Assembly: GCA_964016885.1 (NCBI GenBank)
Contig: OZ024741.1
Location: forward strand, 312,728,001-312,792,000
Reading direction: 5' to 3'
Length of the DNA stretch: 64,000 nucleotides
From: Eledone cirrhosa
Lineage: Eukaryota
The notes beneath the pieces are model-generated. The model did not search any database. It had not been told where the DNA came from and saw only the letters and a program-made list of their open reading frames with translations. The stretch's first letter is position 1. Each line of letters starts with the position of its first letter. Positions 9,001-51,847 of the stretch are shown piece after piece. Position numbers and translations under genes: made by a program.

Positions 9001-9746
9001 GCAAGAAAAGACTCTGCATGGAAAATACCCAGAAAGAGCTAACAATCCTGATGTTGACAAAACTTTAACCCATCAGTGGTTGGCATCCTCTGGACTGAAA
9101 TCGGAGACTGAAGGACTGATTATATCAGCACAAGATCATTGTCTGTCAACAAAAAATTACCAAGCCAACATAATAAAAAATGGATGCAACCTATTATGCC
9201 GTGTATGTAAAAAATAACCAGAGACCATTGATCATATAATTTCAATGTGCAGTCCTATAGCTCCAACCGAATACCTAAACAGGCATGACAGAGCTGCACA
9301 ATACATACATTGGATAATGTGTAAGCATTTTGACCTGCCCCATCAAAAGAATTGGTGGGAGCATCAACCACCTCCCATACTTGAAAAAGATCACATCTCA
9401 ATCTTGTGGAACTTCAGCATCCAAACAGCCCGAAAAATAGAGGCAAATAGACCTGATATAATACTGAAGGACTTTAAAAAGAGGGTATGCCTGATAATTG
9501 ATATGTCCGTTCGAATAGACAAGAATGTATCTATAAAAACATTTGAAAAATTGAGCAAGTATAAGGATCGGGAGATAGCAATTGGAAATATGTGGAAATT
9601 GAGAACTAAAATATACCAGTGGTTGTGGGCGCTATAGGAATAATAACTAAGGGGTCTAATGATTACATTACATGGCGGAACTTGTTGTCTCTTGAGGTTA
9701 CAGGTTGTGATAACTCGTATAAATATAAAGCAGGATAAATGCAACT
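6067..9746 (+). mobile_element. R4/Dong-like family B, near full-length, degenerate
   Basis: ATG at 6260, Myb-like REKWSREDNKEVIEAFY, RT (WIDYKKAFDS, GIFQGDSLSP, YMDDLKL), CRVC..H..C, ANRPDIILKD RLE, 3' end gataaatgcaact(ATA)n. 5' boundary approximate. Confidence 0.9.

Positions 9747-15900: not shown

Positions 15901-15957
<57 letters not shown>
15900..15957. repeat. (TTA)n microsatellite
   Basis: Directly visible. Confidence 0.95.
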
Positions 15958-15958
<1 letters not shown>

Positions 15959-16143
15959 AGCTGCATTTATCTTGCTTTATGTTCATACGAGTTATCACCA
16001 AGTCACAACCAGTGACCTCAAGAGACAACAAGGTCCGCCATGTTCAAGAAAGAACATACATACTCACACATGCATCTTTAGGTGTTTAGACTTGTGATGT
16101 ACATATATTGACAGAATCTTCCTTAGTATATCGGCAGTTCCCA

Positions 16144-16145
<2 letters not shown>
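15958..16145 (-). mobile_element. Dong-B short 3' fragment, unit 1
   Basis: Last codons (MGTADILRKILSI) plus 3' UTR, between TTA tracts. Confidence 0.9.
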
Positions 16146-16178
<33 letters not shown>

Positions 16179-16180
<2 letters not shown>

Positions 16181-16364
16181 GCTGCATTTATCTTGGTTTA
16201 TGTTCATACGAGTTATCACCAAGTCACAATCAGTGACCTCAACAGACAACAAGGTCCGAAATGTTCAAGGAAGAACATACATACTCACACATGCATCTTT
16301 AGGTGTTTAGACTTGTGATGTACATATATTGACAGAATCTTCCTTAGTATATCGGCAGTTCCCA

Positions 16365-16365
<1 letters not shown>
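16179..16365 (-). mobile_element. Dong-B short 3' fragment, unit 2
   Basis: Same 5' truncation point as unit 1. Confidence 0.9.
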
Positions 16366-16397
<32 letters not shown>

Positions 16398-16398
<1 letters not shown>

Positions 16399-19300
16399 GC
16401 TGCATTTATCTTGCTTTATGTTCATACGAGTTATCACCAAGTCACAATCAGTGACCTCAACAGACAACAAGGTCCGAAATGTTCAAGGAAGAACATACAT
16501 ACTCACACATGCATCTGTAGGTGTTTAGACTTGTGGTGTACTTATATTGACAGAATCTTCCTTAATATATGGGCAGTCCCCATTAGTACTATCTTTTGTA
16601 TTTCTCCTATACGCGGGTTTCCTGGGATTTGCGATAAGTAATCATTAGACCCCTTAGGTATCATTCCTAGGGCGCCTACAGCCACTGGTATTGTTTTAGT
16701 TCTCAATTTCCACATTTTTCAAATTTCTATCTCCAGGTCCTTATACTTTCTCAATTTTTCAAATGTTTTTATAGATACATTCTTGTCTGTTGGAACGGAC
16801 ATATTAATTAGCAGCATACCCACTTTTTAAAGTCCTTCAGTATTATATCAGGTTTATTTGCATCTATTTTCGGTCTGTTTGGATACTGAAGTTCCACAAG
16901 ATTGAGATGTGATCTTTTTCAAGTATGGGAGGTGGTTGATGCTCCCACCAATTCTTTTGATGGGGCAGGTCAAAATGCTTACACATTATCCAATGTATGT
17001 ATTGTGCAGCTCTGTCATGCCTGTTTAGGTATTCGGTTGGAGCTATAGGACTGCACATTGAAATTATATGATCAATGGTCTCTGGTTGTTTTTTACATAC
17101 TCGGCATAATGGGCTGCATCCATTTTTTATTATGTTGGCTTGGTAATTTTTTGATGGCAGACACTGATCTTGTGCTGATATAATCAGTCCTTCAGTCTCC
17201 GATTTCAGTCCAGAGGATGCCAACCACTGATGGGTTAAAGGTTTGTCAACATCAGGATTGTTAGCTCGTATTGGGTATTTTCCATACAGAGGCTTTTCTT
17301 GCCATCTCTTAGCCAGTTTCTGTAGCAGTTCTTTCTTTGCAGTTACTTTTACCTGCTTTGCTTTTTCTGTGTTTTCCATTTCAGCAGTAAATGGGACTTC
17401 TGAAATTTGTAGTCCATTACTGTATCTTTGTGCATCTTTTGTAATGGAGTATGATCTTTTGATGCTTTCGTGTTTCAAAACGAGTTTGATCATCCAATCA
17501 TGGGATTCCCTTAGATATGTAAATAATCCAATTGTTGCAGTTTTCAACGCAACGTCTAACTGGATTAACCCAAGTCCTCCTTCTTTCCTAGGGAGATATA
17601 TTCAATCTGTAACTGCCTTAGGGTGAGGCATTCTGTGCATGGTTAAGAATTTTTTAATTTTTGTATCGAGCCTACGGATCTCTGTGCTTGACGAGTTGAT
17701 GACATTGTAATTTAGGTTACTACTGGTATGGCAATCGTGTTTATGGCATCGATCCTATTCCTTGCATTCAATTCCGTTCTTAAGATTGCTCTCACTCTGC
17801 GGTAACATTCCTTTCTTATCCTTTCCCTCATTGTCGAGTGCTTGATTCCGTCTCCTTCACAAACACCTAGATATTTATAAGTTTCCTCTTGATCAAGTTC
17901 TCTTATCACATTCCCCCGATCAAGATTAATGTCTGAACTTTTCAGCAGCTTTCCTCTGGTGAACGTTGCTTTGGTGGATTTATCTAGTCCAAACTCCATT
18001 TTAATGTTATCACTGAACTGCTCCACAGTGGATAATAGCCCTTGCAATTGTTCATCATTTCTTGCAAATAGTTTCAGGTCATCCATGTAGAACAAGTGAT
18101 TAATGGTTTTGTCATAGACTTTATATCCATGTTTTGTTTCATTGAGCATTTTACTTAATGGTATAAGTGCGATGCAGAATAAAAGCGGTGATAAAGAGTC
18201 ACCCTGAAAAATTCCACAATTAATATTAACTTCTCCAGCTTCCAGTGATTTTGTTTCACTATTCAAAAGGAATGTCGTTTTCCATGTCTTCATACTGAAT
18301 GACAAAAACTTCCTGACAACGGGAGATATTTTGAAAATCTCTAAACATTTCTCAATCCAACTGTGTGGCAACCTATCGAATGCTTTTTTATAATCTATCC
18401 AAGCAATCGATAGATTTTTGTGTCTATTATGACGATATTCCAGTATCATTTTGTTAACCAAAAGCTGATCCTTACAGCCATATGAGCCTCGTTTACACCC
18501 TTTCTGCTCAATGGGAAATAGGTCATTTGTTATCAGGTGGTCATATGTATATTCAGTTAGGACTGATGTTAACATTTTATACATTGGGCTCAAGCTAGTT
18601 ATCGGTCTGTAATTTTGGGGATTGTTTGTCTCATCATTCTTCGGAAGCAAGAATGTAATGCCGTTAGCTATCCATGATGGTATCTTTTCTGGCTCCTTAA
18701 CTGTTTTACTGTAAAGTTGGGCTAACAGCTCATGAGACTATGTGAAGGCATTTATTAAAAAAAAATGTATTTTGTCTTTTCCTGGGGATTTCCCTTTGCT
18801 GGTTTTTCTAAGAGTCAAACGCAACTGTTCAACTGTTATATTTTCACATATGTGTTCCTCAAGGTAAGCTGTATCTTTCATTTGTCTGTCTATCCATGGG
18901 GCATGTATATTATGAACTTTTTCTTCGGCCCAGATCTTTTCCCAGAATTCTTGCACTTCCTCCTGGGGTAGTATTGATTTAGAAGTTATTGTTGACTTAC
19001 CAATTTTTCTGTAGAAGTTTCTTTGGTTGTTTTTGAACATATTATTGTCCTTATAGAGTCTAGATCGTTTTTCAAAGCGCCTTATACGAGCAGCGTTGGC
19101 CGACACTTTTTGCTTGACTATTTCTATCAGCATGTCTATGGCACTTGTTGATTTTATACTGTACTTTCTTTTCAATTTTCTAAGTTTAGTTTGTTTAACA
19201 TCTTCACCTACTTTATAGTTTGTTAACATTTCTATGTCAGATCGGAGAAGGTTTATTTGGCGATTGATGTTCTCTTGCCAAGTAAATTTCTTGTGGAAAT

Positions 19301-22417: not shown

Positions 22418-25400
22418 GGCGACCTACGTAGTAAATCGTATCATCGTGAGCTCCGCAAATGTTTGTTATTTTCAGTTGTGTAAAATTGCCTTTCATGGAA
22501 AACTTTTATCATTAACTGTATATAAGTGCACATGCATTGTTATCTGAAAAGGACACCCAAAAAGATTGATGTATTGAGCCCAAAATTTAAACTTTTATAA
22601 TTATTAAACAAAAAATGTTCTTTAAAAAACCATGGCTGACTCAGAATCACTCCTTTCTCACAAACTAACACCTCACACCGACACCACCATTGTAAATATT
22701 ACTACGTTTGCCAACACTAAAAATATAAGCAGTAGCAATATTTTTAATTTGTTTCAGGCAGACATTCATTTCCCGCCATTACCAATGACTGCAGGTGTTA
22801 AAGCCGCCACCACCACCACCACCACCGCGACATGTGTGGGCAAAGAAAACACACACCAGACGTGGGCAGAAGTATGGAACCGTGGACGTGTTCTTTGAAA
22901 CACCACAGGAGGCTAGAGAACACTCCATGGCCCCATTAAGAAGTGACGACTTCACACACGTCCCAAGCTATTGTGGCCAGAGACTTGTAAAGATCAGGGC
23001 CACCCACGTTCCACCGGGCATCGAAATTCCCTGGCTAATAGCTGACATCCTCGCCGGCATCGAAGCCAACACCAAGATAATCGAAATAGCGAAAGAAAAG
23101 CAGGAGAACTGGTCCGGATCTGGAATCGATCTCCTGATCCTAGCGGACCAAAAAAGCATTGAGGAGATCCCAGAAGTAATAGACCTCACTGACGGCAGCC
23201 ACCTCACCATAATTGTCGAGGGCAGAAGGCTTAGGTGTGTCGTTTGTGGTGAAGGAACCTACCTAAGTGCTTTCTTCCCTCAGGCTAAAAGTTTAAGGCC
23301 ACCTCTCCTACCCACCCCAGTGACTCAACCATCAACACCACCAGCAGCAGAGATGGCAGCAACAACTGTAGCAGCAACAACAGAAGCAACTGTAACAGCA
23401 ACAACCCCAGCAACAGTAACAAAACCAACACCACCACCACCCAACGCGCCAGAACTAGCACCAGCGTCTACACCATCCACCAAGCAACAACCAAAACTAA
23501 CGCCTGTGGAGGATTTTCCACTCCCCGTCCTATCACAACTGGAGACGGATTGTGACTACGAGGAGTGGGAAACGGTATCAGGAAAAAAGAAAAAAAGAAA
23601 GGATTCTCTTCCTTCCCCTTCCAAAAACAAAATAAAGAAGGAAACAAATAAACTATCAAACAAAAAAGTTAGGACAGACATGCCACCATCCACACCAGCA
23701 TCACCAACCCCATCACCCCAAACACCAACACCATCACCTTCATTAACCCCAACACCACCATCACCTACACCACAAAAGTCACCAAAATGCGAAACAGAAA
23801 CAAACACACAACAAACGCAAACAAAACAAAACAACTAAAACGATACTCACTACACAGCATTAAATTTGAACAACAACCAATTATTACACTACATCCAACA
23901 CAACACCAGCATCACAGAAAAGACTACACAACAACCCAAAAGTTCACACCACCTCCACACATACAAATCACTCGCATCACACAGAAATCGTACATGACAC
24001 TAAAACAAAACTTCCCCAAAGATATCGGAGACTTCCGACAAGCACTCTCCAGGAGGATTTATAAGGACAACCTTCCTGAGGAGGCCACAAGCAGTTAAAA
24101 GGATGGAGAAACCGTCCTTCCTCTACGAGAAGTACGGTAAGTGGTCATTTCCATCTTTTCCACTCCATTTCAACATGACCACACTCAGAATAGGCAGCAT
24201 AAATGCGCGTGGCTTGGGGTCGTCATGGAAGCAGGGCCACCTGCCCAACGACCTCAGGTCACTAAACATAGATGTAGTGGCCATCAGCGAGACCAGAATC
24301 TCCGAAGCACGGGCCTTCACACCGATCTTCGGCGGCTACGATGTGTACGCAACTCCCAGTCGTCTGGGATCGGGGGGTAGAGTTGCTGTGCTTTTTCGAA
24401 GAGGTTTGGATCTTGCCATACGGGCCATCTTCCTGAAGCCAGAAAGTAAGTTGGTGGTGCTGGACGTGACCAGTGGAGACGGGCAAGCTTTCAGGTGAGT
24501 GGCCGACTATGCCCCGACAGGAGCAGGGCGACCTGATTTCTTCCGGCGTCTGGAGACCTTTCTTGCAACGTCTCGCTCTTTAGTGTTAGTGGGCGAATGG
24601 AACGGGATCTTAGATGCACGCTGGGACTGTGTGGGATTAGAGGATAGGGGAGGAGGTTGCAAGAATCTCACCAACCTGCTCAGACGTTTTGAACTGTCTG
24701 ACAGGTACCGACTGGATTTCCCGAATGTGCCAATGTGGACTTGGATAAATCCCATAGGGTCATCCAGATCATATCTAGATAGAGTATTTTGTAGGGAAAT
24801 AGATAGGTCTATCATAGGCTGTCCACAATTCAAGATAGTCAGTTACACGGACCACAAATTCGTGATCTGTGTGCTTGACTTAGATAGGCTTCATAGACGA
24901 GGGCCCGGCTACTGGAAGCTAAACGCGTCCTTACCAGCGCGCAAGTCCTACAGAGACCGGATTAGCGAACTAGTTAAGCGGGCGATGACGGGGGCCATCG
25001 TCAACAACAAGTGGTGGTTTGCTCTGAAAAGAGCAATTAGAATAGAGTCCATTAGGTTTAGTAAGGCTTTAGCAATAGAGAAAAATAGAGCAGAGGGAGA
25101 ATTAGTTAGAAAATTAACCGATGCGCTTAGCAATGGCATCGCGACCGACGTACTTGCGGCGAAATTGGCCCTTGACCAATTCTTCAATGCAAAGCACGAA
25201 GGCTGCCTTATCAGAGCTAGGGTGCGTGCTCTCGGACACGAGGGACGAAAGCCGTTCAATGGGCCCGAGTGGCGGAGGCGCGTCGTGGCAACATAGCCAC
25301 GATCCGGTCTTTGGCGGACCAGGACGGGCGCATGCTACTCGATCCCGGGACTTGTGTGAAGCTTTTCAGCGACACTTCGCACAGCTGTCCGGGGGCGGCG

Positions 25401-28102: not shown

Positions 28103-31100
28103 GTTTATTGAAGGTGAAGCCACGCTTCTTATTGCCTCCTGTTTTTTTTCAACACTCTACCTCGTTTTCAACCGTTCTAAACCTTTTATTCAAGTTTTAA
28201 ACTTAATAAAACTTTAGAAGTGACCCACCTAATACAGGGGTTCACTCGTAAATAATACTGCACCGCTTTCCGGGGTGTCGTATGTTGTAAAAATATTATT
28301 TGAAAAAAATTCCTTTCAACATGGAGAACACAAGAAAGCGAGAGAGTGCTGTCAGACAACACAGAGAGAGGGAGACTGTCAACATATCAACAAGACAGGG
28401 TTCCAGCGAAGGTAATTTTAAAAGAAAATATTACGAAGGAAAAGAGGAACAATAGCATTTTTAATGATATTGTTACAGATTTAAAATTACCAAATATTTC
28501 TAACACAAACAACACCAACAACAAGACAATCAATAACAACAGCAACAACAAAAATAACAGTGGTAAGGTGGAGAACGACTATAACAATGACAATAACAAC
28601 AGCCACAACAACAATAATAGTAGGAACAGTATCAACAAAAAACAACAATAATAACAACAGCCACAATAACAGTAACAACAACAACAGTATGAACGAAAAC
28701 AACAACAGCAACAACAGTACCAACGATGACATCAACAATGACATCGATACCTGTAACAGTGATCTCAGCACCACCAGCAAGATCAGTAGCGGCAGCAATA
28801 GTGGTGCTGCTGAAAAGGGGACCACTTCTTTTGCAGGAGTCGCCCGAAATATCGAAACAGTGTTAGTCAGTGAGGCGGAGATGGCAGTCGCAAGTGCCAT
28901 GGTGACAAGAAACGCCAATAGAGTTTCCTTGAAACCTCCACCCAATTTTTTCAAGGACCAGCAGCTACGGTCGGTGACTTACCGCACCGTAAGCAAAATA
29001 TCACATGGGGTGGAGAGAGCCACAGAGGCTCAAATCCAAAAGGCCTTGGGGTGCGTCTGAGCACGCAAAACCCACATCACCCGAGACAGAAAGTACGTCA
29101 CAGTAGACGTACTTTACTCCTCCCCTCAAGAAGCGAAGTCTCACCTTTTGGAAACCCTAAAGAGTGAGGAGATAGTCGTGGTGCCCTCCTACTGCGGGCA
29201 GAAAATTGTGAGGGTCAACTTGGCTGGCCGCGTCTGTCTTTGCTGGAATCGAGGACAGGACGACCATGCTGCTAGTAGAGAAAATAGGGAGAGAGAACTG
29301 GTCAGGTATAGGCATGCAAATGCTTATACAAACTGACCAGGAACGTATCGACGCTATACCCGATATCGTAAACCTCGAGGAAGGACTCCAACTCCCTATA
29401 AGTGAGAAGGTATACGGCCAAAATGTTATCTCTGTGGGTCAAAGGGTCACCGCAGGGCCTTTTGCACGAAGAAGACAGCGAAGTAGAATGCCCCTCTCCT
29501 TCCAATACCTGGTCCGCTGCTACCAAGAGCAGGGCAGGCAACAAACGCAGAAGCCCCTTCCACGGTGAGTAGGAGGGCAACGTCCGTGGAACCCGTACCA
29601 AGGCCACGGACAACTAAAGCAGCAGCGTCAGTAGCGGCAACACCAGTAGCAACACCAGCAACAAAATCGACGGAGAGGGCTCCACTACCACCACCAACAG
29701 CTGTGGAGCACATACCCCTCCCAGACGCCACGAAATCCGACATGGAGTCTGAGGCGGGAGTGAGGTGGCAAACGGTCTGCCACAAAAAAAAGAAAAAACT
29801 AAAACCCCTTAGCTTCACCTCCAAAAGCGAAGGCACACAAAGAGGGGTAAAGGCTGCAAGGAGACTTACAGCAACATCACCACCAACACCATCACCACTA
29901 CAAGCACCACCGCCAACAACAACCACACCAGCACCAGCATCACTAAAGACACCAACAACGCAAACACAAAAAAACATACACACCCAACAGCAACAAGAAG
30001 AAAACAGCAACAAAATCACCCCTCTCCCCAAAAAACTACACAGCCATAATCATGGCAAATAAAGAACTCATACAATATATAAAGCAGCACACAGAAAATA
30101 CTACTACACTCCACCAACACCAAGAACTCCTCCGACAAACATAAGTATCATTGAAATCAAAATAGAACAGTACAAACTTTTAAAACAAAAATTGCCCAAC
30201 CCAGTTGGAGACTTCGGAGGGTCAGTTACCAAGAGGATATACACTGACATCCACTTGGAAACCCCCATGACCAGCCAAAGGGACGGTTCTACTGTCCATT
30301 CACCACACGATCAAGGTAAGTGACCCTTTCTCACTTGACCCGTTTCTCATCCAACATGGCCGTTCTTAGAATAGGCAGTATAAATGCACGTGGCCTGGGA
30401 TCATCTTGGAAGCAGGGTCACCTGCTCAACGACCTCAGTTCAATAAACATAGATGTGGTGGCCATCAGCAAGACCAGAATCTCCGAAGCACGAGCCTTCG
30501 CACCAATCTTCGGCGGCTACGATGTATACGCATCTCCCAACCGTCCTTTTTCGGAGAGGCTTGGATCTCGCCATACGGACCATTTTCTTGGACCCAGAAG
30601 GTAATTCGGTGGTGCTGGACGTGACCGGCAGCGAAGGCAATGCTTTCAGGCTAGTAGCCGTCTACGCCCCAACTGGGCAGGACGGTTAGTTTTCTTCAGA
30701 CGTCTAGAGACCGTTCTTGGAACGTCCCGCTCTTTAGTGTTAGTGGGCGACTGGAACGGCATCTTGGATGCCCGCTGGGATTGTGTGGGGATAGTGGATA
30801 GGGGAGGAGGGTGCAAGAGCCTCACCAACCTGATCAGACGCTTTGAACTGTCTGACAGATATCGACTGGATTACCCAAATGTGCCAATGTGGACAGGGAC
30901 AAATTGTATCGGGTCATCCAGATCGTATCTCGATAGGGTATTCTGCAGGGAACTAGATAAGGCTATTATAATTCGTCCACAATTTAAAGTAGTCGACTAC
31001 ACAGACCACAAATTTGTGATCTGTGAGATCGGCATAGACAAACTTCATAGACAAGGACCCGGTTACTGGAATCTGAACGCGTCTTTCCCGGCGCGCAAGC

Positions 31101-33873: not shown

Positions 33874-33923
<50 letters not shown>

Positions 33924-33926
33924 CAT

Positions 33927-36900
33927 TTTTGAATGCCATGGTTGACGGAGGCTCGGGTCTGTAAGGTATAGTAATTTTTAACCGCTATAACAATTGTAAA
34001 TTGTTTAAAACTTTTACCAAATTGTAGATAAAATCACCCTACTCCTCGTGAGAGGGGTCTTTCTGCCCGTTATTTGGCCCTTCGGGGTTAAATAACCGCT
34101 TATTGGGGTTTTGTGCCCAATATTCATTTCAAACCAAAAACAAAACATGGCTACAAAAAAGAATTTTCACAAGTCACTCCCACTCATTCCGTCTTCTTGT
34201 TCGTCAATCGTCACTACATCAGAGAGACGATTGTCTGTCTCCCTCCCTTCTCTAAATGTGGTGTCGCCTCTTTCGCAAGCGACACCATTAAAGAAAAAGA
34301 AAAATATAGTTTCTGATAGCTTTCACCAAGAGCACGTGCATACCGTGGAACATTTCTCCATGACGACAACGACGAAAAATGTGTGCGGTAAATACGGAAA
34401 GCCATTTCATTCGTCTGACGTCATGAAGAATAGCAGTAGCAGCCGTAATAACAGCAACAGCAGCATCAGTGACAAGGAAAACACTAGTAGTAGCCGCAAC
34501 AACATCAGCAGCAGCATAAACAACAACAACAGCAGCAGCATCAGTAACAACAACAACAACCACAGCAACAGCGGAGGCGGTGGTCGTAGTACCAGCAGCA
34601 ACAACAAAAGTAACAGCAGCTCTGACGACAACAACAACAACAACAACAAAGAAAAACCAATCTCGTTTGCAGGTATCGCAAAGAACCTGGAAACCATCCT
34701 TATAACAAATGAGGAATTACAGGAAGCAAAGGAGATGGTGACGAAAATCGGACACCGTGCAATCTGCAAGGCAGTAAGCACAAAATCACGTAGGGTTGAA
34801 AGAGCCACAGAGGCTCAAATACAAAATGCCTTAGGGTCTGTATGGCAGCGGAAAACGCATCTCACCCGAGGCAAGAAATATGCCACCGTGGACGTGTTTT
34901 TTGCCACACCTCAGGAGGCAAAGGCTCAATCCTTAGTGACCCTAAGGAGCGAGGAATGATGGTGTTGGTGCACTCCTACTGCGGGCAAAAAATTGTGAGG
35001 ATCAAACTGACCCACGTCCCCCCTCCCGGGATGGCCTCTTCTTGGCTTTCCGCGTCTGTCCTCTTCGGAATCGAGGACAAAACAACTGTACTACAAGTAC
35101 AGAAAAAAGTACGAGAAGATTGGGTTGGCACCTCCATTGAGATGCTAATCCAAACCAACCAGGAGTGCATCGAAGCTATCCCTGTTGTGATAGACTTCGA
35201 TAACGGCACTAAACTGCCCATAAGTGTTGAGGGCAAACGCCCGAAATGCTTTCGCTGTGGATCGAAGAATCACTTCAGGGCCTTCTGCAATGAGAAGACC
35301 CTGAGAAAGGAGAAAATCCCCCTCCTTCCGAAACCGGCTCCACTGCTACCAGCAACAGGACAGGCGGCAACCAGGAAGGATAGGTCCGGAGCACCCATAC
35401 CCACGCCACGGAAATCAAGAACAGCAGCAGCAGTGGAGGTATTACTAACAACAACAGTAATACCAACTGCAGCTGCAACAGAGACTCCACTGCAAACATC
35501 ACCAACAACAACAAGTCAAAGAGTGGAGCTGGTACCCCTCCCCGACCTCACAGAATCGGACATGGAGTGTGAGGTGGGGGAGGGATGACAAAAGGTCGCA
35601 ATAAGGCACAAACGCAGAAGCAGCGCATCGTCGCCTGCGAAAAGGGAGGAAATAAATGAAAAAAGCGTAAAGGCTACTGCAAAGAGTCTTACAGCAGCAA
35701 CAGCACCAACACCATCACCACCCACACTAGCACCACCATCACCAGCGGCGGCAACCCCACCGCCAACAATAACAACACCTTCAACACCACCACCACATGC
35801 ACCAACATCGCAAACACAACAAAACATACACAGCCAGCAACAACGACAAGAAAATAGCAGTTCCACTCCCCACCCCCAGAAAAACAGATGCACAGCAATA
35901 AATACAAACAACAAAAACCTAGTCACTTACATAATTGAACACACAGACATTTCACAGCACGACTACATAATACCAGCACCAATCAAAACACCAACAAACA
36001 TAAGACTGGTAATAGCACAGAAACAATACACAAACATTAAAATGAAATTCGCCAACGCAGTTGGTGATTTCAGAGACCTAGGACACTCAACCGGAGAGTA
36101 TATTCGGATATACTCACAGAAGAGCCGACGACCAGCCGAAGGGACGATTCAACGGTCCCTTCACCAGACGATCAAGTTAAAAGGGATGGAGAAACCATCC
36201 TTCCTCTACGAGAAGTAAGGTAAGTGGTCTTTCTCATCTTTTCCACTCAATTTCAACATGACCTCACTCAGAATAGGCAGCATAAATGCGCGTGGTTTGG
36301 GGTCGTCATAGGTAAAGGGCCACTTGCTCAACGACCTCAGATCACTGAACATAGATGTAGTGGCCAACAGCGAGATCAGAATCTCCGGAGAACGGGCCTT
36401 CGCACCGATCTTCGGCGGCTACGATGTGTACGCATCTCCCAGCCGTCCTGGATCGGGGGGAAGAGTTGCTGTGATTTTTCGGAAAGGTTTGGATCTCGCC
36501 AAACGGGCCATCTTCCTGGACCCAGAAGGTAAGAAGAGACGGGCAAGCTTTCAGGCTAGTGGCTGTCTATGTCCCGACAGGAGCAGGGCGGCCCGATTTC
36601 TTCTGGCGTCTGGAGAACTTTCTAGGAACGTCCCGCTCTTTAGTGTTATTGGGAGATTGGAACGGGATCTTAGATGCACACTGGGATGTGTGGGATTAGC
36701 TGATAGGGGAGGAGGGTGCAAGAGCATCACCAACCTGCTCAGACGTTTTGAACTGTTTGACAGGTACCGATTGAATTTCCCGAATGTGCCAATGTGGACT
36801 TGGTCAAATCGCATAGGGTCATCCAGATCATATCTAGATAGAGTATTTTGTAGGGAAATAGATAGGTCTAGCATAGGCTGTCCACAATTCAAGATAGTCA

Positions 36901-38558
36901 GTTACACGGACCACAAATTCGTGATCTGTGTGCTTGACTTAGATAGGCTTCATAGACCAGGACCCGGCTACTGGAATTTAAACGCTTCCTTACCAGCGCG
37001 CAAGACCTACAGAGGCCGGATTAGCGAACTAGTTAAGCGGCCGTTGCGGGGCCCATCGTCAACAACAAGTGGTAGTTTGCTATGAAAAGAGCCATTAGAA
37101 TAGAGTCCATAGGTTTAGTAAGGCTTTTTTGGCCCTTGACCAATTCTTCAATGAAAAGCACGAAGGCTGCGTTGTCAGAGCTAGGGTGCGTGCTCTCAGA
37201 CACGAGGGGACGAAAGCCGTTCAATGGGCCCGAGTGGCGCAGGCGCGCCATGGCAACAAAGCCACTATGCGGTCTTTGGTGGACCAGGACGGGCGCATGC
37301 TACTCGATCCCGGGAATATGTGTGAAGCTTTTCAGCGACACTTCGCACAGCTGTTCCGGGGCAGCGGCGAGCTTCCCTCTTGTACGTATTGACTCTCGAG
37401 CCATTACTGCACAAACTGGAGACGTTGAGGGGGGTCCCGCGCGAACTAGGATGTGGAAGATCCGTGTCACCATATGCGGAAGATGTCACCGTGGTGGTGT
37501 CGAACGCCAAACACATCGAGGCGATCGGCACTACACTAAGAGTATACGAAGCGGTGACAGCAGCGATGATCAACGAGGAAAAGTCAGTGGGCCTGCAGCT
37601 CGGCACCTTGAGAGGCAGGTCCATGCCGACCAACAGCGTCGTCGGGCGCTGGACGGACGGACCGGTTAAATTGCTACGTGTCTGGTTCGGTCCGGACCTC
37701 CAGACGGACAAAAATTTGGACAAAAAATGGGCGGAGAGGAAGCTATCCCTAAAAGGTCGAGCGGAGGTGGCTAACGCGTACATCGCGTCCGTCATCTACA
37801 ATCGCCTGACCGTCGTACCTTGTCCTTAGCCCCACCTGACTGCGCTGGAGCGTATGCTCTTTCGCTTTTTGTGGAAGGGACGCGCTCCGATGGTCAGGCG
37901 GTCCATCTGCTGTCAACTCCCGCTACGTGGAGGGTTGGGCATGCCGTGGCTGATGATGAGCAGACATGCGATCAGGCTACGACATCTCCACCTCTTCCTC
38001 GACGGTGATCAGGTGTGGTCGCCGTTTGCTAGACGCGTCTTTCCCCAGTTCATCTCCTTGATGGAGCTGCAGTCCTGGGTCAAGCGAAGACCGAGTGGGA
38101 GCGCTTGGAGACTGGAATGTCTGGTGGCCATGGCGAAAGAGATACTATGGTGGACACGTTCGAAAGGACTGAAGACGAACAGTTACCTCTTCGGTGATGC
38201 CCTGATTATCTTTTTCAAATTTTATTTGAAAAGGAAAATCTTGTTGAAAGATGGGTGAGAGAAGCAAGTATGGCTCGAGTGAATGGGCCTACTCTGAGTA
38301 TGTGTCTGTAACTTAAAGGTGGAAAACTGGGAGAGGGCACTTGCTCTGGTGGTCAGGGTCACTATGGCCTTTCAATGGGCTGTCTCCACAAATGTTCCTC
38401 GGAAGTCTCCCCCCTATTGGGGAATTTTCATTGTTGCTTTTTTATTACATCCTCTGTTTTATTTACACGCAGAAATGCCCATTTGTACCGTCCTGTATTG
38501 TCCTGTACTGTCCTTAATGTCTACTATATGTAAACCCATGTGGTTAATAAAGAAAGCA
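33927..38558 (+). mobile_element. Chimeric Tx1: distinct ORF1 (family C) joined to a Tx1-A ORF2, with internal deletions
   Basis: ORF1 with CFRCGSKNHFRAFC (CX2CX4HX4C). From 36177 onward nearly identical to Tx1-A including the 3' UTR. Deletions near 37370 and 38120. Confidence 0.9.
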
Positions 38559-38573
38559 TTATTATTATTAATA

Positions 38574-40232: not shown

Positions 40233-43200
40233 TTCCTTGAATCTCAGTCATTGATGTTGGTTAACTGGAAAGTCCGTTGGATTGAATATCAAGCCACTAC
40301 CTGCAGCCTCAGATATTCAGGACGTATCGGAGGGTTCTTGCTGTTCCAAGCAAGCATGCCTTTTGAAGCGTTCCAAAAAGCGTGAAGGGGCCGATTTTCT
40401 TTAACCATCCCTGGAAACTTTTGGAGATAGTCCCCAGTGCGCCTATGACAATCGGGATCACTTTGACTTCATGGCAGTTCCAAATCCTTTTCACCTCCCA
40501 CTTTAGGTCCTGGTATCGGTTAATTTTCTCCCTCTCCTTCTCTTGCACTCTCGTGTCGAACGGCAGGCCACATCCACAATCAGACACGATCTTTTTTCTT
40601 TGTCCACAACCACCAGGTCAGGTCTATTGTGTTCCAGTTTTTTGTCCGTCTGTATCCTAAAATCCCACAGCACCTTCACCTGATTGTTCTCCATCACCGC
40701 CTCTGGCCTATGCTCATACCATTTCTCAGAATGTGATAAATTGTTTACTTTGCACAGGTGCCAGTGGATCACCCTGCCCATCACATCGTGTCTCCAGCCC
40801 TTATGATGGGTCTGGGCTAGGTGTTTACACTCGGACACAATGTGAGCCACAGTCTCCTCTCTCTCTCCACAGATCCTGCACAGTGGGCTAGCCTCCTCCT
40901 TGTAAATATGGTGTTTCAACCACTTCGTTTTGAGGGCCTGCTCCTGCGCAGCCATTAGCATTCCTTCTGTAGCCTTTTTGAGGCCTCCTTTTCTCAACCA
41001 GTTCCATGTCTGTGGATCTCTAAATTCAGTTTTCTCAAAGAAGGTACTATGAAGGGATTTTCCCTTAAGGCTGCTCTTCCTCCTTGATGTTATTTTCTCC
41101 TTGGACATCCCCTGGCCTACTGTCCCCTCCTTCAGTACAGTTCTGAGCATTGGCTCCTTACTATAGGTCACGTATTTGTATAGGTTGTTTTTCTCCATCT
41201 GAACACAGTCCTCTATGCTGATAAGACCTCTTCCACCCTCAGATCTCCCTAGGTAGAGTCTATCGACATCACTCCTCTTGTGGAACATGTTGTAGATAGT
41301 CAATAGCTTCCTAGTCTTCCTATCCATTTCTTTTTGTTCGGCAACATTCCATCTCAGAATTCCCGCACTGTACCTAATAATAGACACAGCTCGGGAATTT
41401 ACTGCGCTTATGGCATTTCTGCTGTTCAGATGTGACTTCAATACGCTCCTTACTCTCCGAATGTATTCAGTTCTTAACAATTCCTTCATTTTTTTGTTCT
41501 TTATGACATCAGCCTCCAGAACGCCCAAATACTTGTATCCTTCCTCAGAGTCAATTTCCTTTATCATTTCACCTGTTGGTATCTGGATCCCGTTACTTCT
41601 GCTCAACCTACCCCTCCTCATCACAATGACTCCACATTTACCAATACCATACTGCATGCATATATCATTGCTGAAAATACGGACAGTGTCAACAAGCACA
41701 TCCAACTCCTTCTCACTTTTCCCGAAGAGCTTAAGATCGTCCATAAAGAGGAGGTGATTGATGGTAAGCTCTCCCCTTCCAAACTTGTATCCTGCTCTCA
41801 CTTTTCGCAGCATAATGGTCAAGGGCATCAGGGCAAGGACAAACAACAGAGGGGACAGGCTATCTCCCTGGAAGATACCTCTCTTGATCTTCACACTTCC
41901 CAAGGATACTCCAGTTGATGTCAACTCTGTCTCCCAGGACCGCATAATCCTGCCCAGCAACTGTCTGATGTTGTCTGCCACCCTGAAGATCTCCAGGCTT
42001 TTGGTGATCCAAGAATGAGGCACCATGTCAAATGCCTTTCTGTAGTCTATCCATCCCATGGCAAGATCAGTGTGTTTCCTCCTGCAATTCCCCATTACCA
42101 TCTTATCAATAAGTAACTGGTCCTTTGTACCACGTGACTTCTTTCGGCATCCTTTCTGTTCGTCCGGTAACAAGTTGTTTGTATGGAGGTGATGGTAGAT
42201 TTCCTCAGACACGATGCTCGTCAACAGTTTCCACATTACGGACAGACATGTGATAGGTCTGTAGTTGGTAACATCATTACACTTGATTCGGTCTTTCATT
42301 ATCAGAACTGTGGTAACTTTTGTCAACCACTCTGGCACCTCACCCGACACCAAGCAGTCATTGAACATGGCCGTCAGCTTCGGGTGGAGGGATGTTAAAT
42401 GTTTAATCCAATACCCCTGCACACCATCTGGGCCTGGTGATTTCCAGTTGGTTAGTTTTTTGGCCTGCCCCTTAAGAGTTTCAACTGTGATACTCAAATC
42501 AGTTTGTTGTTGTGCCTGCTCACCGATCTCCCTCTGTACTGTCTCAATCCACCCTGCTTGGACATTATGTCTAACATCCTGCTCCCATATTCCTCTCCAG
42601 AATGTTTTAGTTTGCTCCGCCCCAGGGATCAAGTCGTTGCCTCTTTCTTTTCCCTCAAGCTGTCCAAACAGCATCTTCTGGTTGTTGTCGAACATGCGGT
42701 TCTGTTTATACTGACTGACTCTGTTCTCGTATCGCCTGATTTTTGCACTCTTTGCTACAATGCGTTGCTTCAGTTCCTCTATGGTAATATTTAGCTTTTT
42801 CCTCCTAGTTTTGTATTTTATTTCCAGTCTATTTTTAGTGCCTATGTTTTTTAGTGTCCCATTCAGTAGTGACTCAAGCTTTCCTATGACATTTCTCATT
42901 TCTCCGATTTGCCCACTCAGTCGCTTCTTCCACCACGGCTCTGCTCTTTCTTGTCTGTTGTTTCCTCTCGCTTTTATACCAAGTAGTTTCCTCACCGTAT
43001 TTGCTGTTGCTTTGAGGATATTGTTGCACTGGTGAAGGCTCCTCGCCTCAAGGTATGGGATGACTTTGTTTACCTTAGCTGTTGATTCTTTTAACTTTTT
43101 CCTGTCTACAAATCTTAGGTTCATAGGTTTCCCACTATCATTGTTCAATTCAACTACCACTAAATTTAGGGTGTCAACCGAATCTTGTCCTAGCCCGTCA

Positions 43201-43388
43201 GCATTCATCTCCTCAGTGGCCGTATCTCTGTTCCAGGTATTATTTATCTCAGTATTCAGATCATTGTCTGCTTCGGGTGGTTCCTCCGTTCTCAGGACCT
43301 CTTCACCTTCATTTCCCACTGGCTCGCTTGTCTGGCATACTACACCCGCCATCTCCAAGCCATTCTCTCTGCTCAGTTCCTCCAGTTC
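40233..43388 (-). mobile_element. Dong-A, 5'-truncated, best-preserved copy
   Basis: Contains the 951-aa ORF and the 3' UTR. TTA tracts on both sides. Confidence 0.95.
40503..43358 (-). pseudogene. Dong-A RT-CCHC-RLE polyprotein (951 aa open; N terminus missing, frameshift inside the RLE)
   Basis: WKSPGPDG, NYRPITCL, DYRKAFDMVPH, GIFQGDSLSP, FMDDLKL, YKYLG, GGRGL, CRICGEREETVAHIVSEC, HNRPDLVV..DVAC. Continues in another frame (40309-40587). Confidence 0.93.
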
Positions 43389-43389
43389 C

Positions 43390-43659: not shown

Positions 43660-45648
43660 ATGGCTACTTCACCTCTGCACGAAGCAGCTGAAAGCCTTCC
43701 TCACAAAATAACACCTCACACCGACACCACCATTGTAAATGTTACTACGTGTGCCAACACAAAAAAAAATATAAGCAGTAGCAATATTTTTAATTTGTCT
43801 CAGGCAGACATTCATTTCCCGCCATTACCAATGACTGCAGGTGTTAAAGCCTCCACCACCACCACCACCGCGACAACCACCACCACCACCACCACCACCG
43901 CGACAACAAAAACAAAAGAAGAAAAAAATAAATTAACTCGTGATGTCGAAATGAAATCAAGCAAAATGGACTCTTCCCCACCAAAGACGACTGACGTCAC
44001 CACCACCACAACTGAAACTAAAATTAATATTAACACAAATAACGATAGCAACAACAACAACAATGACACTATAAAAACCACCCTCAGTTTCGCCAGAGTA
44101 GCAAAACAGTTCGAAGCATTTACAGTAACTCAGGAGAATTTAGAAAATGCCAAACAAATGGTAAAGAAAGATGGGTACAGGGTCAGCCTCACCCCCCACC
44201 TAATAAAATGGAGCATCGGTGCCTATGCACCGTGTCGTATCGGACAATAAATGTAAAATCGCGCCGAGTGGAACGGGCATCCGAGTCCCAAATCCAAAAA
44301 GCTTTGGGACATGTGTGGGCAAGAAAAACCCACATCAGACGTGGGCAAAAGTATGGAACCGTGGACGTGTTCTTTGAAACACCAGAGGAGGCTAGAGAAC
44401 ACTCCATGGCCCCATTAAGAAGTGACGACTTCACACTCGTCCCAAGCTATTGTGGCCAGAGACTCGTAAAGATCAGGGTGACCCACGTTCCACCGGCCAT
44501 CGAAATTCCCTGGCTAATAGCGGCCGCCCTCGCCGGCATCGAAGCCAACACAAAAATAATAGCAATAGCAAAAGAAAAGTAGGAGAACTGGTCCGGATCT
44601 GAGATGGAGCTCCTGATCCAAGCGGACCAAAAAAGCATTGAGGAGATCCCAGAGGTAATAGACCTCACTGACGGCAGCCACCTCACGGTAATTGTCGAGG
44701 GCAGAAGACCTAGGTGTGTCGTTTGTGTTGAAGGAACCCACCTAAGGGCTTTCTGCCCTCAGGCTAAAAGGTTGAGGGCACCTCTCCTAACCACCCCAGT
44801 GACACAACCATCAACACCACCAGTAGCAGAGATGGCAGCAACAACTGTAGCAGCAACAACAGAAGCAACTATAACAGCAACAACCCCAGCAACAGTAGCA
44901 AAACCAACACCACCACCACAACCAGCAAAACCAACACCACCACCACCCAACGCTTCAGAACTAGCACCAGCGCCTACATCATCCACCACGCCACAACCAA
45001 AACTAACGCCTGTGGAGGATTTTCCACTCCCCGGCCTATCACAACTGGAGACAGACTGTGACGACGAGGAGTGGGAAACGATATCTGGAAAAAAAAAAGA
45101 AACCAAAAAAGAAAAAATTCTCTTCCTTCCCCCTCCAAAAACAAAATACAGAGGGAAACAAATAAACTATCAAACAAAAAAGTTAGGACAGATATGCCAC
45201 CATCCACACCAGCATCACCAACCCCATCAACCCAAACACCAACACCATCACCATCATTAACCCCAACACCACCATCACTACACCACAAAAGTCACCAAAA
45301 TGCGAAACAGAAACAAACCCACAACAAACGCAAACAAAACAAAACAACCAAAACGATACACACGACACAGCATTAAATTTGAACAACAAGCAATTATTAC
45401 ACTACATCCAACACAACACCAGCATCACAGAAAATGACTACACAACAACCCCAAAGTTCACACCATCTCCACACATACAAATCACTTGCATCACACAGAA
45501 AACGTACATGACACTAAAAAAAAAATTCCCCAAAGACATCGGAGACTTCCGACAAGCACTCTCCAGGAGGATTTATAAGGACATCCTTACTGAGGAGGCC
45601 ACAAGCAGTGAAAAGGATGGAAGAACCGTCCTTCCCTACGAGAAGTAA
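43660..45648 (+). pseudogene. Tx1-A ORF1 (low-complexity N terminus, RRM-like segment, CX2CX4HX4C knuckle, Pro/Thr-rich tail)
   Basis: MATSPLHE..., SFARVAK, GQKYGTVDVFF, CVVCVEGTHLRAFC. Several frameshifts and stops. Confidence 0.8.
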
Positions 45649-45655
45649 GGTAAGT
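45648..45655 (+). promoter_or_regulatory. Consensus 5' splice donor AG|GTAAGT at the Tx1 ORF1/ORF2 boundary (also at 24137, 30316, 36220, 51259)
   Basis: GGTAAGT is present in all five ORF1-bearing Tx1 copies, 37-40 nt before CAACATG. Function is inferred. Confidence 0.55.
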
Positions 45656-49238: not shown

Positions 49239-51847
49239 TAGTTTTTGTATTTTCTTATCGAAGCATAAGGTACCCACCTAGGTTCCAAGGTGGGAAAACC
49301 TCTCAATATTCGGGCTTTAAGCCCGAATATCCAGATTTATATTCAGATTAACAGATTTATTTTAAAAACCGCTTCTCCATCAAAACAAACAAAAAATGGA
49401 AAATTTCGACCTTGAAACAGTACACAACATACAGGTCAAACGTTCAAGCCTGTCACCAATCCCACTGAATACAGAAAGAAGATAGTAGCAGTACCTTCTC
49501 AAAATGACATCACCACCTCCACCACATACTACACAACAACTCAGAAAAACAACGACACCAACAACCTCATTGTAAACATTATATACAATGTAAACACTGA
49601 TGGCGGCGGCAAGAGCAACGGCAACAGCAACAAACAAAACAACAACAACACCAACAACAAGAGCAAGAACGACAACACCAACAACAAGAGCAATGGACGC
49701 GTCACCTTTGCAGCGGCAGCTGCGAAAACAAAGCGCTTTTTCAATGTGGATATTAGCGATAAGGACCAGCAGTTGGCCCAGGCGTGGAGGTTAATTAAGC
49801 GAGAGAAGTCCTGGGCAAACCTGACCATCCCGGACGGGGAAATTGTGGCCATGCAAAGGAGGACGGTGTACTTTCGATGCATTTCAGTGCAGACACGTAA
49901 AGTGGAACACGCTAGCCAAGCAGAAGTCGAGGCTGCTTTGAGGTGCATCGGAAGTGACATCGAGTACAAAGCAATGGCCAAGCAGTTCGGTACCATCTGC
50001 GTGCTGTTCAAAACCGAGGCCCTTGCTATTAAGCACTCGGTGACCCCCTGCAGAATGGAACGCATATCATGCACCCGTCCCACATGGGCAAAAGGACAGT
50101 AAAGGTCCGCATTTCCAGGATCCCACCAGGAATGAACATATGGTGGCTCCTGGGATGCGTAATCGATAAGGTGACAGACACTACCCTCCTAGATATCAAA
50201 CGGACAGAGAGAGAAGACTGGTCTGGAATGGATTTGGAGATTCTTCTCCAAATGAAACCATCCCGGATTTTGCCCGCCTGCAGGACGGGACAAGAATCCA
50301 ATTAATCAGTGAGGGAGGAAAGCCGCACTGCTTCGTCTGCGGAGAAGCAACACATCTGTAAGCCTTTTGCCCTCAGCTCAAAAATTTACGGGGTCGCAAA
50401 CCCCCTTTGTTGCCAACGCCAGTGTCAGCACGGAAAGTTGCCCCACCAACACTAAAAACAACACCAACAAAGACACAGGTAACACCGCCAACATCAAAAA
50501 CAGCTGGACCAACACCAACACCGAAACCAATCCAAGAGGAAAACGAGGAAAGCTCTCTCACTCCCCCTACCCATCCAATTATACACATAGACAAAACAAT
50601 AAACTCACACACAGACACAGATACACTCACAGCCGCAGACCCTTTGTCTTTCAGCAGCGAAGATGAAGGAAAACCCAAAAGTGCCAAAAAACAGAGAAAA
50701 CTCACCAAAAAAGCCCCAATAAAACACAAAAACATACACAACAAAAAATACAGACGCCACTAACGCAAACACTTCCCCAATAACATCAGCATCAACATCA
50801 ACATTAACACCACCTCCACAATCCCCGAAACGCAACAACCTAAACAAACACAAGAACAAATAAACACACAAATACCTGAAATTGGAGACACCACACCTAC
50901 AACAAACACAGACATACCCGAAACAACACCACCAAAACCATCACCCCCACAGTCACCAAAACGAAAATAAATAAAACCACACCAACAAAATATTAAAAGA
51001 TAAACTGATGGCACTTTGAGCACGAAGCGAGGACATTCAAACAGAGGGAGAGATCTTTGAAATGAGCACATTTTGCGTGCCAGAAGATTTTCTTCTTATC
51101 CGAATGTCGCTCGATTCCTTCAAAGAAATTCGGAAGAGCTTTCCTCAAGACGTGGGAACACCGAATGTTAAACCCACATCGAGACATTTAAAGGGGTTCC
51201 AAAAGAAACCTACCAACCATGGAGATCGAACCACCCGACCTTCACAAAACCCCGAGAGGTAAGTAAACCTTCCATCTCTCTTTTAGCTTTCCAACATGGC
51301 CATATTAAGAGTAGGAAGTTTAAATGTTTGCAGCCTGGGGTCACCCTGGAAGCAGGGTCGCCTGCTCAACGACAATCAGATATTTGGAAATCGATGTGAT
51401 TGCCGTGAGCGAGACCAGAATTTCCGACTCGCGCACACTAGCTCCCATTTTCGATGACTATCAGATCTTCGCATCTTTTAACAGGCCGGGAATGGGAGGT
51501 GGGGTGGCAGTGCTGTTTAGGTCAGGACTGGATCTCGAGGTAAGGTCGATCTTCCGGGACACGGAGCGTAAGTTGGTGGTCTTGGATGTGAGCAGCAGCG
51601 AAGGTGGTGCCTTTAAACTGCTGGCCGTCTACGCCCATACTAGGTACGTCTCGCCCTTTACTGTTAGCGGGGGACTGGAACAGCATCTTACACGCACGCT
51701 GGGATTGTGTGGGAGTAGCTGATAGGAGCGGGTGGTGCAAAAGCCGCTAGCACCTAATCAGCCAGTTCCAACTGTCTGACAGGTATCGACTAGAGTTCCC
51801 CAATACGCCAATGTGGACATGGACCAACCACATGGGGTCATCTAGAT

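Follow-up and report, generated by a model that had tools for sequence, protein, structure and literature searches.

Among the systems described so far, those closest to the element analysed here are retrotransposons whose 5' ends have been altered by splicing and LINEs that have exchanged their ORF1. The SVA_F1 (MAST2) and chimpanzee pt_SVA_D6 (STK40) subfamilies are described as splice-born, with 84 and 94 copies, respectively (PMC6139936), and mRNA/LINE-1 chimeras, together with the RAP1GDS1/L1PA2 source element, are known from 17 rare events in which host exons replace the promoter or add one (PMC13174262). In the parts of the literature consulted, recombination, template switching and nested insertion are the usual explanations for exchange of ORF1 or of the 5' end, while spliced LINE copies, such as the SpIREs of human L1 (spliced LINE RNA that has been retrotransposed), are taken to be evolutionary dead ends (PMC4120745, PMC5860796). 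For the ORF1 shuffling of the Jockey superfamily in particular, DNA or RNA recombination and nested insertion are offered, and splicing goes unmentioned in the portion of that report consulted (PMC4120745). As regards insertion site, the Tx1 families Kibi and Koshi target microsatellites, namely (TC)n in the case of Kibi and (TTC)n in that of Koshi (PMC4494074), and recently active L1-Tx1 families have been listed for Octopus vulgaris (PMC13282606). Splicing from LINE to LINE as a route of ORF1 exchange was not described in the titles and abstract openings that we searched, a set lying outside subscription journals, Repbase reports and supplements; the precedents SVA_F1 and the mRNA/L1 chimeras, as far as these sources were consulted, splice host exons, and none was found that joins one LINE to another.

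Structure of the hybrid element

The window, i.e., the whole 64,000-nt stretch of Eledone cirrhosa DNA that was analysed, is a stack of LINEs within (TTA)n/(TAA)n tracts, and it contains an old, decayed full-length copy in which the 5'UTR and ORF1 of a family C are joined to the ORF2 and 3'UTR of a family A (Table 1). A sequence-only reading of this locus had proposed that the C-type ORF1 ends where the exon of a B-homologous donor would end, that A-type sequence resumes after the CAG of the neighbouring copy A1, and that everything downstream is A-type, and comparison with natural copies confirms the break and both flanks. The C-type ORF1 terminates precisely at the exon side of the native C donor. 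Sequence 5' of the break is homologous to the exon-side flank of the B donor at 30315/30316, and sequence 3' of it corresponds, at about 89%, to A1 from 24093-24095 onward and to A2 from 45607-45609 onward. The 5' part has 85.5% identity to a young copy, and 36179-38558 is entirely A-type (82-95% to the young copy, with three internal deletions in the ORF2/3'UTR part). Stops and frameshifts interrupt the reading of ORF1 in this copy. The segment immediately past the break is read in A's native ORF1 frame and adds about 14 codons, and the hybrid-family ORF1 stop (36221-36223) overlaps the retained A donor. At the second position past the break the window copy has a point change of its own, the family letter being present in 25 of 27 other hybrids compared. 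The hybrid carries two homologous segments in tandem, namely C's last 41 nt before the donor followed by the corresponding segment of A, and thus is not the product of an in-register crossover.

Table 1. Features of the hybrid element and comparator sites, in window coordinates
Feature	Position	Strand	Remarks
Hybrid C/A LINE (L1/Tx1-like), full-length copy, old and decayed	33929..38558	+	Delimited by comparison with natural copies
(TTA)n flanking the hybrid element	33875-33922 and 38559-38570		
Family-C 5'UTR and ORF1	33929..36176	+	Start codon 34147-34149
Hybrid junction	36175..36178	+	Break 36176/36177
A-derived 43-nt segment	36177..36219	+	A's 42 nt from CAG to donor, plus one G
A's consensus donor at ORF1 end, kept in the hybrid	36220..36225	+	
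A-type spacer, pyrimidine-rich	36226..36260	+	Ends with ORF2 start codon 36258-36260
A-type ORF2 and 3'UTR	36258..38558	+	EN, RT and zf-RVT in intact copies
Comparator, native A1	24092..24142	+	CAG 24092-24094, 42-nt segment, donor 24137
Comparator, native B, ORF1 end	30275..30321	+	Donor 30316; homologous to native C
Comparator, native A2	45606..45655	+	CAG 45606-45608, donor 45650
Comparator, ORF1-end donor of distant family D	51259..51264	+	

Other elements share the TAA/TTA tracts, in the window and at L099-L118. They comprise elements that we take to be Dong/R4-like by the RT motif, such as the minus-strand one at 40236-43389, and another LINE at 7000-9666, and for the most part they are oriented opposite to the Tx1-like elements. 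A 64% hit in an Octopus sinensis gene model points to a host that is probably an octopod. At 15923-16583 there are three tandem 221-bp units, each composed of a (TAT)n tract and a LINE 3' end.

Copy number, coding capacity and founding of the family

It is confirmed that the window element belongs to a full-length hybrid LINE family. The count of junction copies, a check proposed in the sequence-only reading, establishes the junction as multi-copy, with 2252 exact matches to the longer junction pattern and 2364 to the C 20-mer extended by the base that follows it in the hybrid; native A has 2273 exact matches and unrecombined C has 66. Of the 30 genome loci that match the C ORF1 end best, the hybrids, among them the window copy, number 28 and the native C copies 2. 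Five arrays were examined, all with full-length hybrids standing head to tail and co-oriented with (TTA)n between them, and the full-length copies inspected by eye start right after (TTA)n.

Several young hybrid copies have both an intact ORF1 (696-698 aa) and an intact ORF2 (1139 aa), and divergence in the A part is 0.8% among 12 young copies. ORF2 contains an N-terminal APE-type EN (PF03372), an RT (PF00078) and a C-terminal zinc motif (PF13966), with L1 ORF2p as its closest PDB matches (E about 1e-51). The 697-aa ORF1 bears a CCHC knuckle of the form C-X2-C-X4-H-X4-C, and gave no Pfam match and no homologs in the database search. A separate ORF1 with a CCHC knuckle is a feature of LINEs of the Tx1 clade (L1 group). 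The hybrid ORF2 is L1-like, and the label Tx1 for its putative clade is that of the sequence-only reading.

Hybrids carry one extra G, 7-9 nt past the break (2252 copies with it, 5 without), which is present in 27/27 old hybrids and in 4 native A copies. The single junction and single extra G point to one founding event for the whole family. In the tree of upstream sequence, 41 hybrids and one recombinant C form a single group with support of 93/92 (14 of 75 rows dropped), and the downstream tree leaves hybrids and old A copies unseparated (7 of 75 rows dropped). Since the three of the five G-less hybrids that entered the downstream tree are scattered there, the hybrids without the G are likely secondary losses.

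Some further diversity was seen within the family. The youngest hybrid subfamily (L099-L118) has both of its donors weakened, to 8/9 and 7/9 consensus, while young A keeps both; it also has five residues altered in the A-derived 14-codon tail and an ORF1 with about 45 changes per 1450 nt relative to older hybrids. Native-type C copies, L046/L276 (G000:C2:81652155) and L315, carry hybrid-lineage alleles in 5' ORF1, and are likely to reflect in-register recombination back from hybrid to C.

Anatomy of the junction

A test put forward with the original reading was that unrecombined C copies should carry the donor hexamer at the break, and this is what was found: the 20-mer plus hexamer accounts for the 66 exact genome matches (a few of them B-type), and the donor lies at the break in 30 of the 30 native-type loci read, among them 2 B-type and 1 5'-truncated. 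The donor agrees with the consensus at 9/9 positions and is one of two 9/9 sites among the 345 GT sites of the one native C copy scanned. On the A side, CAG stands immediately before the resume point and is included in the pattern matched by the 2273 A copies. The acceptor is mediocre, at rank 24/56 and 21/46 among YAG sites by pyrimidine content. The last two bases before the break, AG, are common to both parents, and no base after the break is.

The reading frames of the parents differ at this point. In native C, B and D the stop lies two codons past the donor, and in A it falls on the donor, in another phase; in the hybrid, the C ORF1 runs into A's last 14 codons and stop, for which the extra G is required. 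The longest open frame is that of phase 1 for 25 of 28 hybrids and for 21 of 30 native C copies. The two exon-side bases and the donor hexamer are invariant at 8/8 positions across A, B, C and D (one copy each), compared with 4/38 positions in the upstream flank and 5/24 in the downstream flank. A reads this core in a frame unlike that of B, C and D, and an older family, E, retains a weaker version of it. A 10-nt identity surrounds the C and A donors and offers an in-register crossover site, which is unused in the hybrid and shows a crossover in 0 of 63 native-C loci.

Splice-like signals were also noted elsewhere in these elements. The spacers of D and E contain a strong pyrimidine tract with an AG at its end, just ahead of the ORF2 start codon, i.e., an acceptor-like site (window 51259-51290; L123-L151; L231 5590-5650), which in D is located 28 nt past the donor. 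A second consensus donor lies inside the endonuclease region of ORF2 (window 36529 and 45959) and is 9/9 in native C and A. A predicted tectonic-3-like gene model of Octopus sinensis (P0049) includes 61 aa of this endonuclease, a fragment with its end exactly at the codon where the ORF2-internal donor lies. Two 5'-truncated native C copies, L038 and L199, start about 14-22 nt before the ORF1-end donor, and their starts could mark a truncation hotspot.

Tandem loci and a candidate source

The survey of possible substrates covered 63 of the 66 native-C loci, the two B-type and one truncated locus being left out. The first element after native C is a co-oriented A 5' end in 11/63 loci, and an A acceptor lies within about 7.5 kb of native C in 8/63, in keeping with the suggestion of the original reading that co-oriented stacking supplies a C-then-A substrate. 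An example of a native tandem locus is G000:C2:46.713-46.725 Mb, on the minus strand. One of the 4 extra-G A copies sits 6.2 kb behind a full-length native C, a coincidence for which we calculate a chance of about 1.4% (8 loci; 4/2273 copies). The C element of this locus has three minority alleles common to most hybrids and is without five alleles that are near-fixed in hybrids; C haplotypes are mosaic. We regard the locus as a candidate source of the hybrid.

Search for further splice-like products

Whether other chimeras break at the ORF1-end donor and resume after an AG had been posed as a further check, and in this respect the expectation of the sequence-only reading failed: no second splice-compatible junction was found at any ORF1-end donor in the genome with exact-match patterns, which cover part of the possible joins. 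The C donor gave 0 other products, and the C and B donor patterns together gave 8 matches, i.e., 7 point mutants and 1 deletion, with no splice product. For the A donor in its old and young forms there were 6, 3, 0 and 2 matches, none of them spliced, which consist of point changes, small indels, one inversion-like join and one microhomology deletion. The B donor gave 4 matches, all mutants, the D donor 1 match, a mutant, and the search for other partners at A's acceptor 2 matches, both mutated copies. The stronger acceptor of D gave 0 genomic products, and the ORF2-internal donor gave 42 matches with one foreign join, whose relatives lack AG. Products of the A-to-A, hybrid-to-A, C-to-C, B-to-A, any-to-D and short-intron kinds were likewise absent from these searches, despite many co-oriented arrays; since A-to-A arrays are common and their product would be in frame, the absence of an A-to-A product counts against splicing.

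Several candidates were examined and set aside. L210 is a long join starting exactly at a donor, with a 3-nt microhomology, and is not splice-compatible. L231, the foreign join just mentioned and a second long join that begins exactly at a donor without being splice-compatible, connects the ORF2-internal donor to the old family E, and the relatives without AG at that point are 70-88% alike. L025 joins donor+2 to a site after CAG and is not a clean splice, and L155 is a deletion inside a hybrid. A short intron reaching from the ORF1-end donor to the next AG, some 50 nt further on, was considered as the donor's function, and was rejected because only in A would it keep the frame and no genomic product of it was found. 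A two-step route via a 5-nt microhomology and later slippage has 0 intermediate copies; one single copy, L067, has a 4-nt duplication.

Old copies very often carry internal deletions, 40 nt to 2.9 kb in size and with microhomology of 1-3 nt, and young copies seldom do. Taken as a whole, the deletions suggest a post-insertion deletion process that is active in this genome.

Origin of the founder

We favour, at a probability of roughly 0.6, a founder made by cis-splicing of a C read-through RNA to the CAG of an A element and then retrotransposed, and our confidence is somewhat higher that a splicing-dependent route of one kind or another was involved. Transcription would have read through from a C element into a co-oriented A downstream, the ORF1-end donor of C would have been spliced to a CAG that served as a cryptic acceptor close to the A ORF1 end, and the spliced RNA would have been retrotransposed in cis by the A ORF2 encoded on the same RNA. 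Such a product would keep the C ORF1 minus its last two codons together with A's stop, spacer and ORF2, and so would be autonomous. The extra G, which the A parent may already have had or which was acquired at founding or soon afterwards, would bring the tail into the frame native to A. The steps that we infer are read-through transcription, use of the donor and acceptor, and cis-retrotransposition; the hybrid structure, the native C donor, the native A CAG, C-then-A stacking in (TTA)n and the intact young copies are all observed directly.

The same sequence would result from a DNA deletion of about 6 kb between C and a stacked A, repaired at the 2-nt AG microhomology, with the match to the donor arising by chance; an RT jump, either on read-through RNA or from one RNA to another, would give the same picture. 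The microhomology caveat had been raised at the outset, and it stands: among 86 deletion events in element copies, 59 of them clean, a 2-nt ambiguity is the commonest class (22/59), and GT-AG compatible deletions make up 2/59. Multi-kb joins between neighbouring elements also occur, for example in L307 and L308, where C ORF2 is joined to the beginning of an A-type ORF2 region downstream; GT-AG was found in 0/27 rows of such joins, about ten of which read as real, with the rest being reference mis-assignments. The join of L210 at the donor by microhomology and the lack of other spliced products in the searches favour a deletion as well. What weighs against it is the precision of the break, which we evaluated with a null in which all possible C-to-A joins are weighted by the genome's own microhomology spectrum in five window sizes. 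The chance of a cut at the donor with AG is 0.21-2.2% under this null, and that of a cut at the donor with YAG is 0.05-0.16%, although these are not clean p-values, because the windows are an assumption on viability and the site was picked for its donor-like appearance. A deletion would moreover have passed over the 10-nt in-register identity nearby, a far better crossover, and the C-then-A(+G) locus persists undeleted, as a candidate source only. We therefore hold a deletion origin to be possible, if rather unlikely.

The exact donor alongside a weak acceptor would also be accounted for by trans-splicing of C and A RNAs, or by capture of a released C 5' exon through ligation or an RT jump from truncated A cDNA onto its AG end. 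In fission-yeast telomerase RNA, a 5' exon is set free by cleavage that goes no further than the first splicing step, which lends the capture variant a precedent. In the part of the mRNA/LINE-1 study consulted, exon/L1 junctions coincide with donors, in some cases with no L1 acceptor, and trans-splicing is favoured (PMC13174262). With a cis substrate available at 8/63 loci, however, a trans step is unneeded, and the exact-match searches gave no other 5' modules of C, A, B or D ending at the donor on foreign 3' parts, which leaves this route improbable in our estimate. Insertion of a 5'-truncated A into C at the ORF1 end, a type of nested insertion proposed for ORF1 shuffling in the part of the Jockey report consulted (PMC4120745), could draw on the existence of 5'-truncated copies that start near the ORF1 end, such as L038 and L199. 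We give it very little credence: the full-length copies inspected by eye start after (TTA)n and the break site has no such tract, the relic search (tail, target duplication, rest of C) returned one locus, without C-ORF1/A upstream, and the coincidence with the donor would remain chance.

These weights are a matter of judgement, resting on the consideration that a rare cryptic splice needs no C-side coincidence and that only products with both an ORF1 and the ORF2 start can found a family. The splice origin put forward by the sequence-only reading thus seems likely, with the donor in native C, the C-then-A loci and the low probability under the null on its side, and the absence of recurrent chimeras in the searches against it. 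As the searches gave no second splice-compatible chimera at an ORF1-end donor, splicing is best taken as the explanation of a single event rather than as a recurrent route. A broader notion, in which the ORF1-end donor and head-to-tail stacking in (TTA)n make ORF1 a spliceable cassette, with the host spliceosome acting as a recombinase that transfers ORF1 together with its promoter to the ORF2 of a neighbour, seems doubtful to us.

Discussion

The two parents, the product and tandem loci that are plausible substrates all stand in one genome, and the hybrid outnumbers its ORF1 parent about 34-fold (2252 vs. 66 exact matches, for patterns of different length). Should the splice be real, an autonomous LINE family can arise through host splicing in a single step, with microsatellite targeting as the source of the substrate. 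Even if the founder arose by deletion, the family is a clean natural ORF1 swap in which ORF1/ORF2 compatibility can be tested.

The known systems, each compared as far as its source was consulted, resemble the hybrid in different respects. Kibi and Koshi are, like it, two-ORF APE-type LINEs, and they have microsatellite targets (PMC4494074); the putative target of the hybrid is (TTA)n. Jockey ORF1 shuffling likewise places the ORF1 of one lineage on the ORF2 of another, with the difference that the parents were not caught beside the product (PMC4120745). SpIREs share with the proposed founder the copying of spliced LINE RNA into the genome, but the splice lies within one element and damages the promoter or ORF1 (PMC5860796), whereas the hybrid joins two families and has expanded to 2252 copies. 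The mRNA/LINE-1 chimeras have junctions at donors, a coding-competent LINE downstream and a proposed origin by cis- or trans-splicing, but they involve host exons, and no ORF1 exchange between LINE families is described in the part of that study consulted (PMC13174262). The closest parallel in outcome is offered by SVA_F1 and pt_SVA_D6, in which a 5' module is joined at an exon end, splicing is the inferred cause and a multi-copy subfamily was founded; they are, however, non-autonomous, and their 5' module is a host first exon (PMC6139936). Of the hallmarks of the SVA_F1 type, the hybrid has the parent donor at the end of the 5' module and the AG before the 3' module, and lacks the host exon and the non-autonomy; both of its parts are LINE, the module is a whole ORF1, the ORFs are intact in young copies, and the family exceeds 2200 copies.
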